Part shown: positions 5,010 through 14,534 of the stretch, one piece after another
Layout of the letters: every line of letters starts with the position of its first letter
How positions within the stretch are numbered: position 1 is the stretch's first letter
Origin: Patescibacteria group bacterium
GTDB taxonomy: Bacteria > Patescibacteriota > Patescibacteriia > SG8-24
Direction: 5' to 3'
DNA: 51,686 nt
Assembly (NCBI GenBank): GCA_034716415.1
Contig: JAYEJB010000005.1
Span: 1-51,686 of the forward strand
Made by a program: the position numbers and the translations under genes
The notes under the pieces: model-generated
Database searches by the model: none
What the model was told of the DNA's origin: nothing
What the model saw: only the letters and a program-made list of their open reading frames with translations

Positions 5010-5993
5010 ATGAGCAACGCAAAGAAAATCACCATCGCGCTGGCGCTCGTGGCCACTATCTCTTATTCGTTCGTCATCTTCAGCGGGGATTCCGCGCAGC
5101 CGAACGATGAAGGCTGTCGAATCATCGCGCTGGGGCATCTCTATTCCCTGCAACCCTACCCCGAACTTCAGGAGCTACTGGTCGAACACCTCAACTCCAC
5201 TCATCCCGATGCATCGGCCATCGTCTCGTTAGGCGACAACACCGTTCAGGGGACATCCGAGGAATGGCAGAGCTTCTTCGAGAAGTATGAAGGCTTCGAC
5301 GCGCCACTCTATTTTGCTCCGGGTAATCACGATCTGCGCACCCCAGCCGCATACGACAATTACATGGAGCAGGTCGGTTACACCTCAAAGAAAGTCAGTA
5401 TTAACAACTGCAACCTGATCCTCACGAACACCGTCAGCCCGCACGAGCTGGATTTCAATGACGTCGAGATGGTGAAGGGCGGCGGATTGGATGACGCGAG
5501 TATCGCGCTGCTCGAGGGGCTCGATTCCACACGTACCGACGAGGCGGACCTGCTTCTCATGCACCACTCCCTGTTTTCGATCGGCCTCATACACCACGAC
5601 AATGAGTGGGATACGGAACTGAACCGCATCTACGAAAATGAAAAAGTCTGGCGCGAAGAGATCCAGCCGCTCATCAAGGACAGGGTCGACGCGGTCTTCG
5701 CGGGTGACATGGCGAACAGCGCTGTCTCCCACCAGGAGATCGACGGCATCCCTTACGTCGGTAACTCCTTCGGTAGCGCGTTCGACCCGGATCCACGATC
5801 GGACCGACGCCCATTGAGCTACACTGTCGTGAACGTAGACGGCGAAGGTAATATCGAGACGAGCATCGAATACCTGCCGATTCCGGTCACCAGCGACTGG
5901 TTCGCCTTTGACCGAGACCGACGCTTCGAGGGATTCGCCGACCAGTACGACGACGGCTACGATCGCAAAGAATACAGATACCCGAACCGATGA
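5010..5993 (+). CDS. Calcineurin-like metallophosphoesterase, membrane-anchored/exported
   Basis: N-terminal TM; LGD, PGNHD, MHH and FAGD motifs. Confidence 0.82.
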   Translation: MSNAKKITIALALVATISYSFVIFSGDSAQPNDEGCRIIALGHLYSLQPYPELQELLVEHLNSTHPDASAIVSLGDNTVQGTSEEWQSFFEKYEGFDAPLYFAPGNHDLRTPAAYDNYMEQVGYTSKKVSINNCNLILTNTVSPHELDFNDVEMVKGGGLDDASIALLEGLDSTRTDEADLLLMHHSLFSIGLIHHDNEWDTELNRIYENEKVWREEIQPLIKDRVDAVFAGDMANSAVSHQEIDGIPYVGNSFGSAFDPDPRSDRRPLSYTVVNVDGEGNIETSIEYLPIPVTSDWFAFDRDRRFEGFADQYDDGYDRKEYRYPNR

Positions 5994-8764
5994 TAATCAA
6001 GTCCGGAAAGAAAGACAGCAATTGGGGGCCGCGGATCATAATCGCGGTTTTGCTTCTTTTTATCGCGGCGCTGGTCATCTATCTCCTGCCGATGACACTG
6101 GTCGTGATGTCGGACAGGTTGTCGATGCACTTCATTTCGATGACCTATCCCGGACTGCACGCGCGTTGCGGATATCTCGAGGGCAGCTGCGGTCAGAACC
6201 TGCACTCTGCCGTCCGTACGACCATCAGCTCCCAGTTGGCCGACCTATTCGGTTCGACGAAGAGGCCTCGTTTCAACATCAACGTCAATTTCGATTCGTG
6301 GGAAACGATCAAGAAGGCGCGCGCGGACGCGATGCAACGTGGCTACCTAGAATCGTCCGACCAGGATTTCGTCAAAGGCACTATCGATTACGCCGGTCGG
6401 GCCTATCCGGTGAAACTGCGCCTTAAAGGACTGCATCTCGACCACCTCGACGATGCGAAGATGTGGTCCGTGCGTGTCCATGTCAATGACGACGAAGCGA
6501 TCCTGGGCATGCGACGTTTTTCGTTGCAACACCCCAAGACACGGGACTACCAATACGAACCGATCTATCTCGACATGGCCCGCGACCTCGGCCTCATGGC
6601 GCCCCGTTATATGTTCGTCGACGTTTCGATCAACGGTGAGCGGATCGGCACCATGGCTTTAGAGGAATACTTCTCCAAGGAACTTATCGAAAGTCATGGG
6701 CGGCGCGAGGGCGTGCTGATGAAATTCGACAGCGACACTTACGTACACGGCGGAATCGGTCTGCAACGGATGTACGACTCCACTGATACCGCCCGTATCC
6801 GCCGGAACTATTGCGATAACTTCTTCACTGCTGACGTGGTGCCGTACCGATCAGACAGCGTCGCCGCTGACCCGGACCTGACCAGACAGAGAGACGTAGG
6901 CATATCACTATTGAGATCATTCGCCGACGGCGAACAAGAGGCCTCTGATGTCTTCGCTGTCGAAAAGACCGCTGGCTTCATCGCGAACGCGATGGCGTGG
7001 AACTCCTACCACAACCTGCACTGGATGAACCTGCGTTTCTATCTGGACCCCATCACGCTGAAACTCGAACCGATCGCATCGGACGCCGGGCTGGCTACGA
7101 TTCACGAACTGCCTAAGATCGACTGGCGGATGCCACCGGACAACTCCGGGGCGCTCATCCATCACGACACGATAGCCGACACCTTTGCGATGGATTTCAT
7201 CCGGTTACTGCTCGCGGATCCCGAAATCATGGGCGAGACGCTGTCCATACTCAAAAGATACGAGACAAACATATCCCGAGGCGGCGTCATTCCCGACTAC
7301 CGAGAACAGGAGGAACGTTACTTGCGCCAGCTACAACCCGCGTATCCGTTCCTGCCACCAGCCGTCTTCAGTGCGTGGGAAAACCTTGAAGAGACCATCG
7401 AACTGATAGGACAGATCGATCTCCAAACGAAAGACGACCTTGGGCCGCTTCGTGACGGAGAGGTCTTCTTCCTGCCTAGACTTCCGAAATACATCAACGC
7501 TCATGTGATAGCCGATGGATCAGGTGTCGAGCTGGAATTCGTGAACATCCTCAACTCGGACATCCTGATCGACGGGATTCAAGTCAACGTAAACGGTGAG
7601 ACACACCCGATAACAGATTATTCCGACAACATTTTCCCCTTACTGTTGGAGCGGACCGGTGATTGTACGCGTCCGAACTCTGCGGTCATTCAGCTGAATG
7701 ACATCGCCTTCACGGATTCGATTGAAGTCACGGGCAATGTGCGGATATCGGCCGAGAGTACGGACAATGTCTACCCGTTCATCGCGACTCCATACGCCGC
7801 ACCGTCGGTAGCACATGCGCTTACGCCTTTGGCGGACGATGAACTGCGGATGTTTCCTTTCTTGTCAGTATCAAAGGATAAGCAGAACATCAAAGTCAAA
7901 GCCGGACAGTGGCAAGTAAATCGGTTCCTGACACTACCTGAAGGTTTCGGACTGGAGATCGGTCCGGATACGACCATGACCTTCGCGCCTGAAGCGGGAA
8001 TGGTCGTCAACGGCCGGTTGCAAATCGATGGCCCAGTCGTCATGCGAGCCTCGAACACGGATTGGAAGGGGCTGACCGTGTTGCGGGCTAACGGATTTGA
8101 TGACAGACCTTCTTTCGTGCGGGGTCTGGAGATTCACGACACGACATTCGCCGAACATGACGACTGGAAGATTACCGGCGGAATGACTTTCTACGAATCC
8201 GATGTCGAGATGGAAGACTGTCGTATCGTCGGCAGTCGGGCGGAAGACGCGCTGAACATCATCCGTTCGGACTTCACCCTCGATGGCGTGACCATCGAAG
8301 ACACGCTCTCGGACGGCCTGGACGCGGACTTCGCTTCAGGCAGGATTGCTGAATCCACTTTCTCTGACATACAAGGAGACGGCGTGGACTTCTCCGGTTC
8401 GGATATCACACTCGCCAAGTCGTCGTTCAACGGAATCGGCGACAAGGCCGTATCGGTCGGCGAAAAATCGACGGTCGACGCGGAAGATATCAGCATCAAC
8501 AGCGCGACATTCGGTTTCGTAAGTAAGGACGGCTCACTGCTGAAGGTCACGAATTCGAACCTTGAAGGGATCGACCGGTATGTCCTCGCGGCTTACATCA
8601 AAAAAACGGAATACGGCAGCGCGACACTGCAGGCTGACGGCATTACGTACCAAGAAGATTTGTATGATAAGGTCGTCGCGCAAGAAGGGAGTATCTTGCA
8701 TATAGACGGCGAACAGGTTCCGGACCAGGCACTGGATGTCGAAGCGCTGTATCAGACAGACTGA
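5990..8764 (+). CDS. CotH kinase family protein with C-terminal right-handed beta-helix
   Basis: VKLRLKG..DH, SVRV, FSLQ.P.TR, HNL.W.NLRFY.DP.T.KLEPI..D; C-terminal EDALNI/SDGLDAD/GDGVDFS/DKAVSVGE repeats; ATGA overlap with upstream gene. Confidence 0.85.
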   Translation: MIIKSGKKDSNWGPRIIIAVLLLFIAALVIYLLPMTLVVMSDRLSMHFISMTYPGLHARCGYLEGSCGQNLHSAVRTTISSQLADLFGSTKRPRFNINVNFDSWETIKKARADAMQRGYLESSDQDFVKGTIDYAGRAYPVKLRLKGLHLDHLDDAKMWSVRVHVNDDEAILGMRRFSLQHPKTRDYQYEPIYLDMARDLGLMAPRYMFVDVSINGERIGTMALEEYFSKELIESHGRREGVLMKFDSDTYVHGGIGLQRMYDSTDTARIRRNYCDNFFTADVVPYRSDSVAADPDLTRQRDVGISLLRSFADGEQEASDVFAVEKTAGFIANAMAWNSYHNLHWMNLRFYLDPITLKLEPIASDAGLATIHELPKIDWRMPPDNSGALIHHDTIADTFAMDFIRLLLADPEIMGETLSILKRYETNISRGGVIPDYREQEERYLRQLQPAYPFLPPAVFSAWENLEETIELIGQIDLQTKDDLGPLRDGEVFFLPRLPKYINAHVIADGSGVELEFVNILNSDILIDGIQVNVNGETHPITDYSDNIFPLLLERTGDCTRPNSAVIQLNDIAFTDSIEVTGNVRISAESTDNVYPFIATPYAAPSVAHALTPLADDELRMFPFLSVSKDKQNIKVKAGQWQVNRFLTLPEGFGLEIGPDTTMTFAPEAGMVVNGRLQIDGPVVMRASNTDWKGLTVLRANGFDDRPSFVRGLEIHDTTFAEHDDWKITGGMTFYESDVEMEDCRIVGSRAEDALNIIRSDFTLDGVTIEDTLSDGLDADFASGRIAESTFSDIQGDGVDFSGSDITLAKSSFNGIGDKAVSVGEKSTVDAEDISINSATFGFVSKDGSLLKVTNSNLEGIDRYVLAAYIKKTEYGSATLQADGITYQEDLYDKVVAQEGSILHIDGEQVPDQALDVEALYQTD

Positions 8765-10996: not shown

Positions 10997-12277
10997 TTAT
11001 CGCCTTCTGCGCGGCGGCCGTTTTTTACGACCGGCAGGTCCGCGGCCTCTCGACGGTCCGCGACCTCTCGCCGGACCTCGCCCGCGTTGCGGTTTGCGCT
11101 TGGTCGTCAACGTCGACGGGCGCTCGATGGGCGCACTCGGTTCAATCGGGAGTCTCACAGGTTTGAGTTGCACCTGCGTCAGATACTCGATCTCCGTCAC
11201 TATCAGTCCCTGATCAGGTTCCGCGAACGATATCGCCTTGCCCCAGCGTTCGGCGCGTCCGGTGCGTCCGATACGATGCACGTAATCCTCAGCCTGTTCC
11301 GGCAGGTCGAAATTGATGACAAGTGAGATTCCGGTCACGTCGATGCCACGTGCGGCCACGTCTGTCGCCACGAGCACTCGGTATGTGCCGTCCTTAAAAC
11401 CGTCGAGCGCCCTCCGCCTCTGCGCCAGGGTCAGATTGCCGTGTATTTCCGTAGCGTTCTCGCCCGCGCGTTTCAAGTCCCGCGCGATGCGCTTCGCACC
11501 GTACTTGGTGCGCGAGAACACGAGCACGGTCCCCCGCTCCTTCTTCAGCAGATGCTTCAGCAGACGGATCTTGTCCGGCTTCGGCACGACATACAATGAC
11601 TGCTCGACAAGCTCGGACGCGGTACCGGAACGCGCCACCTCGATCCGCTTCGGCTCACGCATATACTTCTTCGCCAACCGCTCGATCGGTTCAGGCATAG
11701 TCGCGGAGAACAGCATGGTCTGCCGCTCGTCCGGCACGCGCTGCATGACCTTACGGATCTGCGGCGCGAATCCCATATCGAACATGCGGTCCGCCTCGTC
11801 GAGAACGACCACATTTGTAGTATCGAGCTTGACCCAGCCACGTTCCAGAATATCGATAAGACGCCCGGGGGTGGCGATTATGACGTGCGGCTTTCTGGCG
11901 ACCTGCGCCCTTTGCACGTTCATCGATGCTCCACCGATCACGACAGCGGTCCGCAAACCGAACTTTTTGGCGATCTTCTTGTACTCCTCATCTACTTGCA
12001 AAGCGAGCTCCCTCGTCGGCAATACCACCAGACCCTGACCGCCCTCGCGCGCGATGCGCTGAATCATCGGGATGGCGAAAGCAATGGTCTTGCCGGTCCC
12101 GGTCTGCGCGATTCCGATGATGTCGCGGCCCTTGAGCCCGACCGGAATCGCATCGCGCTGGATAGGCGTCGGTACCTTGAATCCCGCCGCCTTCAGCACA
12201 GCCAAAAGCGTCTCGGCGATACCGAGACCGTCGAAGCCTGAAGCTTCCTTATTCTTGTCGTTATCTTGTGAACTCAT
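10997..12277 (-). CDS. DEAD-box ATP-dependent RNA helicase (RhlE-like)
   Basis: Q motif PTPIQ, AQTGTGKT, PTRELA, TPGRL, DEAD, SAT, ARGID, HRIGRTGR; basic C-terminal tail. Confidence 0.96.
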   Translation of the reverse strand: MSSQDNDKNKEASGFDGLGIAETLLAVLKAAGFKVPTPIQRDAIPVGLKGRDIIGIAQTGTGKTIAFAIPMIQRIAREGGQGLVVLPTRELALQVDEEYKKIAKKFGLRTAVVIGGASMNVQRAQVARKPHVIIATPGRLIDILERGWVKLDTTNVVVLDEADRMFDMGFAPQIRKVMQRVPDERQTMLFSATMPEPIERLAKKYMREPKRIEVARSGTASELVEQSLYVVPKPDKIRLLKHLLKKERGTVLVFSRTKYGAKRIARDLKRAGENATEIHGNLTLAQRRRALDGFKDGTYRVLVATDVAARGIDVTGISLVINFDLPEQAEDYVHRIGRTGRAERWGKAISFAEPDQGLIVTEIEYLTQVQLKPVRLPIEPSAPIERPSTLTTKRKPQRGRGPARGRGPSRGRGPAGRKKRPPRRRR

Positions 12278-12443: not shown

Positions 12444-12526
12444 TATTTAGCGGTAAATCCATTGACTTACCGGCAGGATGGTGCTAAAAAACGATATCGG
12501 ACCTTACAACAGAAGGGAGAACGAAA

Positions 12527-13255
12527 GTGTGTACACTGATCGTCTTTAAGGAAATGCGACCTACAAAGCCGCTTGTCGTCGCCGCGAATCGGGATGAGGT
12601 CGCGGATCGTCCGACACGCGACCCGCACTGGCGCACACCGGGAATATTCGCACCGCTGGACCTGGTCCACGATGGAAGCTGGATCGGCATCAACCGGCAA
12701 GGACTAGTCGTCGCGCTGACCAACCGCTGGCCCGTAAAGCGAGTGAAAGGACGACGTTCGCGCGGACTCATCGTGACTGAAGCCCTGGAGCGACCTTCGG
12801 TCAGGGGCGCGACGATGAGCCTCATATCCAGACCCGCCGATACGTATAACGGATTCCATCTGTTGCTCGCTGACGGGCAGGAAGCCGTGCTGATCTGGAA
12901 CGATGGCGAAGAATACCAGATGTCCGAACTCGGGTCCGGTTTCCACATCATCACCGGCAATGGATTCGAACCCGGGCACAGCAACCGCGACCTGATGATA
13001 CGCGGATTTCTCCTGGGTCATGGGGATGATCTTCCCGAACCCATCTTTGTCCGCAACGATCTGCTGTCATTCCATGGACCTGGACCGGAAGACGGCACTT
13101 GCGTCCATGGTGAGGGTGTAAGGATGGAATCCGTTTCTTCCATGGTCATCACCCACAAGGGGAAAGGATTGTGGGCGGAAGCACATTGGCGCACTGGTCG
13201 TCCATGCGAACGCGGCCCATGGCAAAAAGAAGCCATAGACTTCAGGAGGGAGTAA
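12527..13255 (+). CDS. NRDE / TANGO2 family protein (Ntn-hydrolase-like)
   Basis: MCT N-terminus, AANRDE...RPT, GSWIGIN..G....LTN, SRG.IV, YNGF.L. Confidence 0.92.
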   Translation: MCTLIVFKEMRPTKPLVVAANRDEVADRPTRDPHWRTPGIFAPLDLVHDGSWIGINRQGLVVALTNRWPVKRVKGRRSRGLIVTEALERPSVRGATMSLISRPADTYNGFHLLLADGQEAVLIWNDGEEYQMSELGSGFHIITGNGFEPGHSNRDLMIRGFLLGHGDDLPEPIFVRNDLLSFHGPGPEDGTCVHGEGVRMESVSSMVITHKGKGLWAEAHWRTGRPCERGPWQKEAIDFRRE

Positions 13256-13257
13256 CC

Positions 13258-13938
13258 ATGAAACGCATGCTTGTGACGGCCGGCAGTACGGCCACGCATA
13301 TCGACAAGGTCAGGATCGTGACCAACATCTTCGGCGGACGGACCGGCGAGAACATCGCCATTGCTGCACGGGAAGACGGTTGGGACGTGACGATACTGTC
13401 ATCAAATCGTGAATTCCGTGATTACGGAAAGTATTTCGAAAATTTCCGGCGCATACGGTTCAAGACGTTCGACGAACTGGCCGAGCTGATGGAGCGCGAG
13501 GTGCGCGAGGGCGGCTACGACGCCATCGTGCATTCGGCGGCGGTGAGCGACTACCGGCCGGAGGGGATCTACGTCCGTGACGTAACTGGATCCATCTATT
13601 CACTCAATATCTCTGGTTCCGACGCGGCCAAGATCCCGTCGTCGCATCGCGAGCTGTTCGTCCGGCTCGTGCCGACGTTCAAGATCATCGACCGCATCCG
13701 TGATCCATGGGATTTCCAGGGCAAGCTCGTGAAGTTCAAGCTCCAGGTCGACATGACCGATGAGCAGCTCGTCGAGATCGCCCAGAAAAGCATCGTCCAG
13801 TCGGACGCTGACATCATCGTCGCCAACTGCCTGGAATGGAGCACCGAATACGCCTACATCATCGGCCGGGACGATGACGACGTGAATTCGGTGGTACGAA
13901 AGGACCTGGCGACGGAGCTGATCGAGAGGTTGTCATGA
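13258..13938 (+). CDS. coaB: Monofunctional phosphopantothenate-cysteine ligase (CoaB-like)
   Basis: LVTAGST...ID.VR.VTN..G..G, HSAAVSDY, LVKFKL, IVAN; SD-led ATG at 13258. Confidence 0.85.
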   Translation: MKRMLVTAGSTATHIDKVRIVTNIFGGRTGENIAIAAREDGWDVTILSSNREFRDYGKYFENFRRIRFKTFDELAELMEREVREGGYDAIVHSAAVSDYRPEGIYVRDVTGSIYSLNISGSDAAKIPSSHRELFVRLVPTFKIIDRIRDPWDFQGKLVKFKLQVDMTDEQLVEIAQKSIVQSDADIIVANCLEWSTEYAYIIGRDDDDVNSVVRKDLATELIERLS

Positions 13939-14486
13939 GAAGACCGCAGATCCTGTTAGGCGTGACCGGAAGCGTGGCGGCGAAGCTCACACCGAAGATG
14001 GTGCCAGCCCTGCAACAACACGGGGAAGTCGACGTCGTCGCGACTCAGGCGGCGCTCTACTTCTGGGACCGAGACCGGACAGGCGCCGAGCTCTGGACCG
14101 ACGAACATGAATGGCCGAACAAGCGATACGTCAAGGACCAGGACATCCCGCACATCCAGCTAGGCGATCAGGCCGACATCCTGGTCGTGGCGCCGCTCAC
14201 GGCGAACACGCTGACCAAGATAGCGCTCGGCATCGCCAATAACCTGCTTACGAGCCTGTACTACGCCTGGCCGCAAGAAAAGCCTGTCATCGTGGCACCG
14301 GCGATGAACACGCGGATGTGGAACAACCCGCTGACGCAGCAGCATCTGCGGGCACTGATCGGACGACATGGCAATCACTGCTACGTGGATCCCGTCGCCG
14401 GACGCCTGGCCTGCAACACGACAGGTGTCGGCAGGATGGCCCAAATCGACGACATCACCGATGTCGTCCGCATGTTCCTTCCCTGA
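13935..14486 (+). CDS. coaC: Monofunctional phosphopantothenoylcysteine decarboxylase (CoaC, HFCD flavoprotein)
   Basis: LLGVTGSVAA, HIQL, APLTANTL.KIA.G.A.NLLT, PAMNT.MW, LAC...G.GRM; ATGA overlap with coaB. Confidence 0.9.
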   Translation: MRRPQILLGVTGSVAAKLTPKMVPALQQHGEVDVVATQAALYFWDRDRTGAELWTDEHEWPNKRYVKDQDIPHIQLGDQADILVVAPLTANTLTKIALGIANNLLTSLYYAWPQEKPVIVAPAMNTRMWNNPLTQQHLRALIGRHGNHCYVDPVAGRLACNTTGVGRMAQIDDITDVVRMFLP

Positions 14487-14534
14487 ACGAAAAACCCGCC
14501 CCGAGAGACGGGTCTTTTTTTCGGATAAAACGGA

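Follow-up and report, generated by a model that had tools for sequence, protein, structure and literature searches.

A recurrent gene-context link between NRDE/TANGO2-family genes and coaB, seen from a Patescibacteria contig

What does a protein of the NRDE/TANGO2 family do beside two enzymes of coenzyme A (CoA) synthesis? The question is raised by contig JAYEJB010000005.1 of a Patescibacteria group bacterium (assembly GCA_034716415.1), whose full 51,686 nucleotides we refer to as the window, and in which an NRDE gene is followed directly by separate coaB and coaC genes. CoaB joins cysteine to 4'-phosphopantothenate, after which CoaC removes a carboxyl group to leave 4'-phosphopantetheine; split CoaB and CoaC proteins are known from streptococci and from eukaryotes. 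TANGO2 patients and model organisms respond to pantothenate. An initial annotation of the window, made from its letters, read the trio as a CoA-salvage module in which the NRDE protein supplies phosphopantothenate for rebuilding by CoaB and CoaC. As we describe below, that reading is supported in part: the linkage recurs and the metabolic premise holds. A general partnership between NRDE and coa genes is not supported.

The NRDE/TANGO2-family gene (12527-13255, + strand) starts with a GTG codon that lies 7 nt downstream of AAGGGAG, and it encodes a protein of 242 amino acids (aa) that begins M-C-T and carries AANRDE at residues 19-24. Its TAA stop codon (13253-13255) is followed by the two nucleotides cc and then by the ATG of coaB at 13258, that is, by a gap of 2 nt. 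The coaB gene (13258-13938, + strand, 226 aa, with AGGAGGGAG upstream) is a stand-alone gene for a phosphopantothenate-cysteine ligase-like protein. Its end at 13938 overlaps the ATG of coaC at 13935 in the sequence ATGA, and coaC (13935-14486, + strand, 183 aa) is itself a stand-alone gene for a phosphopantothenoylcysteine decarboxylase-like flavoprotein. The open reading frames (ORFs) and their spacing confirm the layout proposed in the initial annotation, and its best explanation is that NRDE, coaB and coaC form a single translationally coupled operon.

Is this arrangement peculiar to one genome? We assembled NRDE loci from 13 relatives, 80 species-representative records, 80 metagenome contigs and wider stretches of the relatives, and scanned their ORFs with the CoaB and CoaC of the window. 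The resulting set contains 175 loci with an NRDE ORF, including the window and three loci that duplicate others; the gene calls in the fetched loci are ORF heuristics. The 27 closest NRDE relatives of the window (P0002-P0028) are 43-66% identical to its protein, and the best match among the metagenome matches listed is 39% identical. NRDE stands directly before coaB or coaBC in seven further loci (G003, G008, G017, L037, L116, L135 and L156). The linkage is thus not unique to this genome. Uniqueness was what the initial annotation, in calling for a survey of NRDE neighbourhoods for coa genes, had named as counting against its reading, and this refuting condition fails.

These seven loci differ in how much of the trio they preserve. 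The NRDE gene lies upstream of coaB with an ATGA junction in G003 (L014/L197), in L116, where all three genes are present, and in both L037, from a Patescibacteria metagenome-assembled genome (MAG), and L135, whose contigs end inside coaB. The NRDE gene upstream of coaB in G008 (L033) is cut by the end of the contig, and a 2.6-kb contig of G017 (L214) retains the last 38 NRDE codons directly before coaB-coaC. Finally, NRDE is followed in L156, after a gap of 3 nt, by a canonical fused CoaBC of 408 aa (DFP 227 bits, Flavoprotein 121 bits). At all six readable junctions the distance from the NRDE stop to the coaB or coaBC start falls between -4 and +3 nt (ATGA at four, 2 nt in the window, 3 nt in L156), and this at identities to the window of 32-49% for NRDE and 25-57% for CoaB. 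When eight window proteins are queried against the seven linked loci (1.4-5.9 kb each), NRDE, CoaB and CoaC alone match; the GreA-like gene, the DEAD-box helicase, a 401-aa ORF, the CNNM gene and another flank ORF of the window find no match there. Diverged genomes thus share the order of these genes but not their surroundings, as is expected of a conserved operon.

To place these loci relative to one another we use single-gene trees, built with FastTree or by quick IQ-TREE runs. The NRDE sequences of the window, of G003 and a G008-like sequence fall within a well-supported clade of 30 rows. L037 and L116 form a sister pair inside a wider Patescibacteria group, which also includes the unlinked G002, G006 and G023 and eight f2/Paceibacter loci. 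The NRDE of L135 sits on a long branch with an uncertain placement, and that of L156, also on a long branch, falls outside the Patescibacteria clade (FastTree). Given its fused coaBC and this placement, the join in L156 is possibly independent of the one in the window. The well-supported branches of the NRDE tree force at least 2-3 changes of label between linked and unlinked.

The distribution of the genes across genomes adds to this picture. PF05742, the Pfam family of TANGO2, is found in 14 of the 37 genomes of the window's order (16 if two contig-end fragments are included) and in none of 400 other genomes sampled across the phylum. CoaC is present in five of the 37 (G000, which is the genome of the window, G002, G003, G008 and G017), and all five also carry coaB and NRDE. 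NRDE adjoins coaB-coaC in four of these five coaB+coaC genomes and lies on a separate contig in G002. Because the genes are on different contigs there, their co-presence in G002 is not explained by adjacency; and since single deletions remove adjacent genes jointly, only G002 adds evidence of co-occurrence that is free of adjacency. On the TsaD tree, the genomes that combine NRDE with a DFP domain are interspersed with genomes that have neither; G000, for example, is sister to five of the latter.

The second question is what the host organism could feed into CoaB. The genome G000, of which the window is contig C5, comprises 1.31 Mb in 76 contigs, with 56% G+C and 97% completeness; its relatives carry the labels Patescibacteria, Parcubacteria or Candidatus Paceibacter in public records. 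The absences of CoA genes that we report are results of hidden Markov model (HMM) searches of draft genomes. Whole-genome searches of G000 find no type III pantothenate kinase, PanC (pantoate-beta-alanine ligase), archaeal phosphopantothenate synthetase or CoaE, and for type I pantothenate kinase nothing beyond a 20.8-bit P-loop match; the absence of pantothenate kinase covers types I and III, the type II control having matched in no genome. Type III kinase is found in none of the 37 genomes of the order. A tblastn search of G000 with a relative's CoaD-CoaE fusion gives no match, and the sole coaD-like gene is a phosphopantetheine adenylyltransferase (PPAT)-like gene on another contig (C35:10137-10592), whose best full-length match is coaD, at 78.4 bits where the cut-off is 103.3.

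Because no type I or III pantothenate kinase, no PanC and no archaeal phosphopantothenate synthetase are found, the CoaB of G000 is left without a recognisable source of 4'-phosphopantothenate. The initial annotation had seen no pantothenate kinase, coaD or coaE in the window and had proposed that the rest of the genome be searched for coaA/X, coaD and coaE. The whole-genome searches agree with the former and uphold the metabolic premise. CoaB is rare in the phylum as a whole, with a DFP domain over the cut-off in 11 of the 400 other genomes sampled. Within the order, genomes that have CoaD-CoaE but no CoaB (G004, G013, G018 and G019) also have no NRDE, and this absence speaks of a specificity of NRDE for the CoaB and CoaC steps. 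What emerges is a subset of Patescibacteria that keeps only the middle of the CoA pathway.

We turn to the proteins themselves. The NRDE protein matches PF05742 with 91.8 bits against a cut-off of 22.6 (87.9 bits in the genome-level profile search), over residues 1-145 and profile positions 1-156 of 257 only. Across an alignment with 30 relatives, N21, R22, D23 and E24 are invariant, and Cys2 (at least 90%) and N66 are nearly so. Its AlphaFold2 model has a predicted local distance difference test score (pLDDT) of 94 and a predicted template modelling (TM) score (pTM) of 0.92. In a Foldseek search with this model, ranks 1-4 are taken by human TANGO2 (9bwa and 8sv7; TM 0.69-0.72), and further matches include the bacterial protein CV2077 (3gvz), acyl-CoA:isopenicillin N acyltransferase (2x1d; TM 0.70), bile-salt hydrolases and penicillin V acylases. 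The window NRDE is accordingly predicted to adopt the alpha-beta-beta-alpha fold of a Cys N-terminal nucleophile (Ntn) hydrolase. The M-C-T product, the alignment, the model and the Foldseek matches are all in agreement with the Ntn-like fold and N-terminal Cys that had been proposed for it at the outset.

The window NRDE shares the N-terminal Cys2, the Asn-Arg-Asp-Glu motif, the LTN asparagine and the Ntn fold with human TANGO2, PF05742 and CV2077. It differs from human TANGO2 in overall sequence, with an identity of about 20%, and in its C-terminal half, which is a clade-specific variant. The catalytic residues proposed for human TANGO2 are Cys2, Asn25, Arg26, Asp27, Asn75, Asn157 and Lys166 (PMC13044924). 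Counterparts of Cys2, Asn25, Arg26, Asp27 and Asn75 align in the window NRDE, where the sequence alignment to 8sv7 ends at residue 118. The C-terminal half departs from the Pfam model: His183, Cys192 and His194 are invariant in the Patescibacteria NRDE clade, and Cys227 is nearly so. These four residues sit in a conserved SFHGPGPEDGTCVHG ... GRPC stretch outside the Pfam match and may form a metal site.

The same fold and the same N-terminal Cys nucleophile are found in acyl-CoA:isopenicillin N acyltransferase (MEROPS C45), bile-salt hydrolase and penicillin V acylase; these enzymes differ in being made as precursors or in being longer than the window NRDE, to which they are 10-18% identical. 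In the established chemistry of Cys-Ntn enzymes, a non-peptide amide is split or transferred by way of an acyl-thioester formed with the N-terminal Cys, and just such an amide occurs in the CoA intermediates surrounding CoaB and CoaC. Membership of the window NRDE in the C45 model itself is rejected, with 19.7 bits against a cut-off of 85 (NCBIfam C45, E 4e-4). The three enzymes named are described as cleaving or transferring non-peptide amides, and isopenicillin N acyltransferase as using acyl-CoA (PMC13044924).

The coaB product scores 93.6 bits against PF04127 (DFP), over the cut-off, and 108 bits against the NCBIfam stand-alone ligase models PRK06732 and coaB_strep, under their equivalog cut-offs of 217 and 265. 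It aligns over its full length with 2gk4 and keeps the nucleotide-binding stretch, AAVSDY and the AKI-SS lysine stretch. The coaC product scores 107 bits against PF02441 (Flavoprotein) and likewise falls under the equivalog cut-offs of coaBC_dfp (134.6 against 219.7) and coaC_strep (109 against 261.4). For the pair as a whole, the top-ranking NCBIfam models are the stand-alone phosphopantothenate-cysteine ligase and phosphopantothenoylcysteine (PPC) decarboxylase models, all of them at scores below cut-off. Compared with Arabidopsis HAL3a (AtHAL3a; 1e20, 133 bits), CoaC matches the corresponding stretches at the His of HIQLG, at APAMNTRMWNNP and at RLACN. From the roles of their AtHAL3a counterparts we take the HIQLG His, the PAMNxxMW Asn and the RLACN Cys to be catalytic. 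The gene layout and the alignments to 2gk4 and AtHAL3a bear out the earlier description of coaB and coaC as split, in the reverse of the fusion order and intact in their catalytic motifs. Separate genes, domains and catalytic motifs are shared with the monofunctional CoaB and CoaC of streptococci (TIGR02114, TIGR02113) and with eukaryotic PPCS and PPCDC, whereas the usual bacterial CoaBC (Dfp) fusion has the opposite order to the B then C of the window. The pair differs from all these known systems in its upstream coupled NRDE gene and in a genome with no detectable pantothenate kinase.

How does this compare with what is proposed for TANGO2? Binding of CoA and acyl-CoA has been reported for the human protein (PMC11867700; PMC13044924), and a role in CoA salvage has already been put forward as a hypothesis, in a Perspective (PMC11179719). 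Competing proposals for the biochemical function of TANGO2 are a heme chaperone, an acyl-CoA binder and an Ntn hydrolase. In the available parts of the TANGO2, NRDE and DUF833 literature, main texts without supplementary tables, a bacterial NRDE-coaB-coaC operon is nowhere described; the joined coaB-coaC context of the window NRDE is likewise not mentioned in the available text on TANGO2. What is new here is therefore the bacterial gene-context evidence, the three families and the idea of CoA salvage being already known.

The explanation that we favour is as follows. An organism without a detectable route to make or phosphorylate pantothenate would scavenge phosphopantetheine or CoA-type compounds. 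In a 4'-phosphopantetheine or CoA-type compound that has been scavenged or has a damaged thiol, Cys2 of the NRDE protein would cut the pantothenoyl-cysteamine amide, and this cleavage would free the pantothenoyl acid that CoaB requires. CoaB and CoaC would then furnish it with a new cysteamine end, and the CoaC product could be adenylylated by the PPAT-like enzyme whose gene lies on C35. We arrive at a model in which NRDE supplies CoaB because the coupling to coaB, the co-presence in five of five genomes, the lack of any pantothenate kinase or pantothenate synthesis found in G000 and the reported binding of CoA and acyl-CoA by TANGO2 all fit it. The chemistry is favoured because the nearest characterised enzymes to the NRDE model act on non-peptide amides and the closest of them (2x1d) uses acyl-CoA.

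The enzyme known to attack the pantothenoyl-cysteamine amide through a Cys nucleophile is pantetheinase (vanin), and its reaction is of the same type as the one we propose for NRDE; it belongs, however, to the nitrilase superfamily, with a fold unrelated to that of NRDE, so that homology is not expected, and it is an extracellular animal enzyme that acts on unphosphorylated pantetheine. On the whole of this evidence, we consider that NRDE is probably linked in function to pantetheine/CoA metabolism, in a pathway shared with CoaB and CoaC. The particular substrate and direction, hydrolysis giving phosphopantothenate, are plausible, though less likely than not. The explanation taken as a whole, with its operon, its shared pathway and its amidase mechanism, is one that we advance tentatively and lean slightly against believing correct in every part.

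A number of observations weigh against it. Most of the linked loci may share one ancestral arrangement. A conservative test with independent pairs on the TsaD tree has little power: of its 5 pairs, CoaB changes in step with NRDE in 2-4 and against it in none (median p 0.25). Among the 400 other genomes sampled, NRDE is absent from all 11 that have a DFP domain over the cut-off, from which it follows that CoaB works without NRDE and that NRDE is not a general CoaBC partner. Among the 175 NRDE loci, seven have coaB or coaC beside NRDE, the window included and the G017 fragment not counted; 110 have at least 900 bp on both sides and no coa gene, 16 more have none downstream, and 42 are too short. 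Outside the window's order the link between NRDE and coa genes is nearly absent. A Pfam tally finds DFP in one of 130 immediate downstream neighbours of NRDE, and no CoA-synthesis family is among the 25 commonest Pfam families of 144 upstream neighbours. In the sister family f2, none of eight NRDE loci adjoins coaB or coaC, five genomes carry NRDE without a DFP match, and NRDE lies, in the loci with callable flanks, between a Na/H-exchanger-type gene and unrelated genes. Domain fusions of NRDE with coa genes are not found among longer proteins, which is weak evidence in the same direction. The main weakness of the model is that hydrolysing intact phosphopantetheine and then rebuilding it would be futile, so that a damaged or unusual, and hence hypothetical, substrate is needed. 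Lastly, G003, G008 and G017 (81-95% complete) show no clear CoaD or CoaE, which calls into question the fate of the CoaC product in those genomes.

In one alternative the three genes share no pathway at all. The trio would be a lineage-specific operon of convenience that compact genomes have inherited, and NRDE would have an unrelated role, such as heme trafficking or the hydrolysis of lipid amides. NRDE neighbourhoods do vary by lineage: the 130 downstream neighbours include 14 NUDIX proteins, the commonest kind, and 9 class I/II aminotransferases, and the 144 upstream neighbours include 18 AAA ATPases, 7 patatins, 6 Cys/Met pyridoxal phosphate (PLP) enzymes and 5 Na/H exchangers. Most linked loci belong to one Patescibacteria NRDE clade, and the phylogenetically corrected co-occurrence is not significant. 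Moreover, a bacterial TANGO2 homologue of the same Pfam family as the window NRDE, Shewanella HtpA (SO0126), is reported to be a heme-trafficking protein (PMC10470608), and the Tyr of the YNGF stretch is kept in the window protein. Against mere inheritance speak the stop/start coupling at six of six junctions at 32-49% NRDE identity with all other flanks differing, an NRDE outside the clade that is joined to a fused coaBC (L156), and the retention of NRDE in all five coaB+coaC genomes of the order, unlinked in one of them (G002). The heme role of TANGO2 is itself disputed (PMC12782551; PMC13044924), and an HtpA-type heme route would be without an obvious target in G000, since an HMM search finds no cytochrome c assembly protein there; the available text of the HtpA report, for its part, describes no coa context (PMC10470608). 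We regard the absence of any shared pathway as a serious possibility, although we lean against it.

A role in CoA metabolism need not, however, mean the supply of CoaB. The NRDE protein might instead handle the acyl or thioester end, as a binder of acyl-CoA or acyl-phosphopantetheine, a thioesterase or an N-acyltransferase that frees or buffers a scarce cofactor and makes no CoaB substrate. The closest characterised structural neighbour, 2x1d (TM 0.70), together with the weak NCBIfam C45 match (E 4e-4), the reported acyl-CoA binding of human TANGO2 (PMC11867700; PMC13044924), the patatin-like phospholipase upstream of NRDE in Myxococcota-type loci (7 of 144), which fits a lipid or acyl role, and a stand-alone CoA_binding_2 protein encoded on contig C63 of G000 all point this way. 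We nevertheless find such a role unlikely. It leaves unexplained both the source of 4'-phosphopantothenate and why NRDE is tied to CoaB and CoaC rather than to CoaD, CoaE or CoA-using enzymes, NRDE being absent from the four CoaD-CoaE genomes that lack CoaB; and G000 is without fatty-acid synthesis, given that HMM searches find no AcpS and no carrier domain of the acyl carrier protein (ACP) type. The trio might also make or recycle a thiol other than CoA, with the CoaB-like ligase adding cysteine to another acid, the flavoprotein, of the homo-oligomeric flavin-containing Cys decarboxylase (HFCD) family, decarboxylating it as EpiD and MrsD do with peptides, and NRDE trimming or transferring the product. 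The scores of CoaB and CoaC below the equivalog cut-offs, the homology of CoaC to EpiD and MrsD (E 1e-8 to 3e-12) and the want of a clear CoaD and CoaE in G003, G008 and G017 would fit. But CoaC is far nearer to AtHAL3a (133 bits) and human PPCDC (1qzu, 119 bits) than to EpiD (50 bits), with bacterial CoaBC at 75 bits, and the His, Asn and Cys of PPC decarboxylases are all present in it; CoaB aligns along its whole length with both the streptococcal-type CoaB model and 2gk4; and the coaB-coaC pair of G002 is clustered with a CoaD-CoaE fusion. A non-CoA thiol is thus highly improbable.

The favoured explanation can be extended beyond these genomes, in a form that we consider a long shot. NRDE/TANGO2 proteins might be amidases that remove the cysteamine end of (phospho)pantetheine or CoA, so that with CoaB and CoaC they would make up a self-contained cycle of three enzymes for renewing a thiol end lost to irreversible oxidation or alkylation: the damaged end is taken off, cysteine is attached and a decarboxylation follows. 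The human TANGO2 deficiency that responds to vitamin B5 might then trace back to this as the ancestral activity. Cells that depend on scavenging the cofactor would profit from such a repair cycle, if it exists. Independently of this extension, the recurrent coupled operon offers independent comparative-genomic support for a role of NRDE next to the PPCS and PPCDC steps. It narrows the list of TANGO2 substrates to a few commercially available compounds, for which a small, well-folding bacterial protein can serve in assays, and an open question about a human disease protein becomes a short list of enzyme assays.

One class of protein bears on how the co-occurrence is counted. Fusions of a DFP domain with a class II aldolase/adducin domain, 425-680 aa in length, occur in L211:7448-8818 (G006), L027:766-2235 (G025), L029, L030, L031:37-2070 (G016) and L037:3721-4995; one of these fusions also bears a NUDIX domain. 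A divergent TrmB-like regulator stands beside the fusion in the three loci examined (G006, G025 and L037), and in L037 the fusion lies directly upstream of NRDE-coaB. The five relatives with such a fusion all have NRDE, and none has CoaC. The copies of G006 and G025 are 75% identical in genomes of different families. Look-alike clusters in the Atlas are 77-97% viral, and 42 phage records match by tblastn, the best being an uncultured 595-kb phage (51% identity over 91%). In view of these viral clusters and phage records, the fusions of G006, G016, G023, G025 and G036 are not counted as CoaB, which with them would be present in 10 of 15 NRDE genomes; the stricter count is that of the five coaB+coaC genomes given above. 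The fusion may have come from a phage or another mobile element, or it may stand in for CoaC without using a flavin. NRDE itself has three weak matches only in phage records.

The CoaD-CoaE fusions of the relatives are about 410 aa long (CTP_transf_like plus CoaE) and lie at L209:7578-8798 (G002:C97), G004:C5, G006:C5, G018:C4 and G023:C55, adjoining tsaD in G002, G004 and G018. The window has its own tsaD (1333-2415, - strand), with a small membrane protein at the position where relatives have the fusion. The coaB-coaC cluster of G002, otherwise made up of CoA genes only, holds a 228-aa ORF between coaC and the CoaD-CoaE fusion (L209:6688-7371, on G002:C97). This ORF belongs to no Pfam family and finds no tblastn match in G000; nor does BLASTP match it to the 223-aa ORF that occupies the corresponding position in G006; G002 has no pantothenate kinase, and the ORF is a candidate for filling a missing CoA step.

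NRDE loci without coa genes have regularities of their own. In f2/Paceibacter loci (L202, L204, L205, L207, L042 and L134), a 564-aa Na/H-exchanger/TrkA-N protein lies upstream of NRDE, no coa gene is present, and proteins of about 430 aa, 236 aa, 406 aa and 79 aa follow; on visual inspection, the 236-aa, 406-aa and 79-aa proteins resemble a glycosyltransferase, a flavin oxidoreductase and a ferredoxin, respectively. A NUDIX gene follows NRDE on the same strand in 14 loci (L047, L058, L059, L062, L063, L065, L104, L106, L138, L140, L143, L162, L168 and L180), which are labelled as Binatia MAGs, plus one Verrucomicrobiia and one Syntrophobacteraceae. The NUDIX protein is about 245 aa long, with an insertion before the Nudix box, and both sequence and fold comparison with the PDB rank the uncharacterised 3qsj first. 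An AAA ATPase gene lies divergently upstream in most of these loci; the one member scanned is best matched by MadB_ATPase (347 bits, cut-off 475). The NUDIX neighbour is not supported as a CoA pyrophosphatase, as a motif might suggest: the CoA pyrophosphatase model matches one of six NUDIX proteins scanned (E 5e-4; NCBIfam, E <=0.01), a Nudix-box pattern search gives no match, and the CoA diphosphatase NUDT7 comes no higher than ranks 25 and 40 in Foldseek, in the company of generic Nudix proteins. In Myxococcota-type loci (L048, L053, L056, L077, L097, L127, L136, L148 and L157) a conserved gene lies directly upstream of NRDE on the same strand, and the patatin-like phospholipases of the Pfam tally come from loci of this type, which hints at a lipid-related context for the Myxococcota NRDE clade.

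There remain the signals around the trio in the window. The initial annotation had placed a promoter and a terminator at its two ends. The hexamers of a candidate sigma-70-like promoter are indeed present (12462-12490, + strand), with TTGACT at 12462-12467, a spacer of 17 nt and TAAAAA at 12485-12490; the -10 hexamer is weak, being without the final T, and a consensus scan that requires T at -10 position 6 did not call it. The sole promoter called by the scan here is TTGACA-17-TATATT (12443-12415, - strand, 11/12 consensus), which faces the DEAD-box helicase gene (10997-12277, - strand). The spacer of 249 nt between the helicase and NRDE genes may therefore hold divergent promoters. At the other end, a terminator-like hairpin with a T-run is present between convergent genes (14483-14524, + strand), with a fold energy of -13.9 kcal/mol (z -1.59); as a terminator it is weak, because 16 of 200 shuffles fold equally well, and the consensus scan made no call. 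Elsewhere in the window, a 924-aa ORF (5990-8764) has weak matches to CotH-kinase and right-handed beta-helix.

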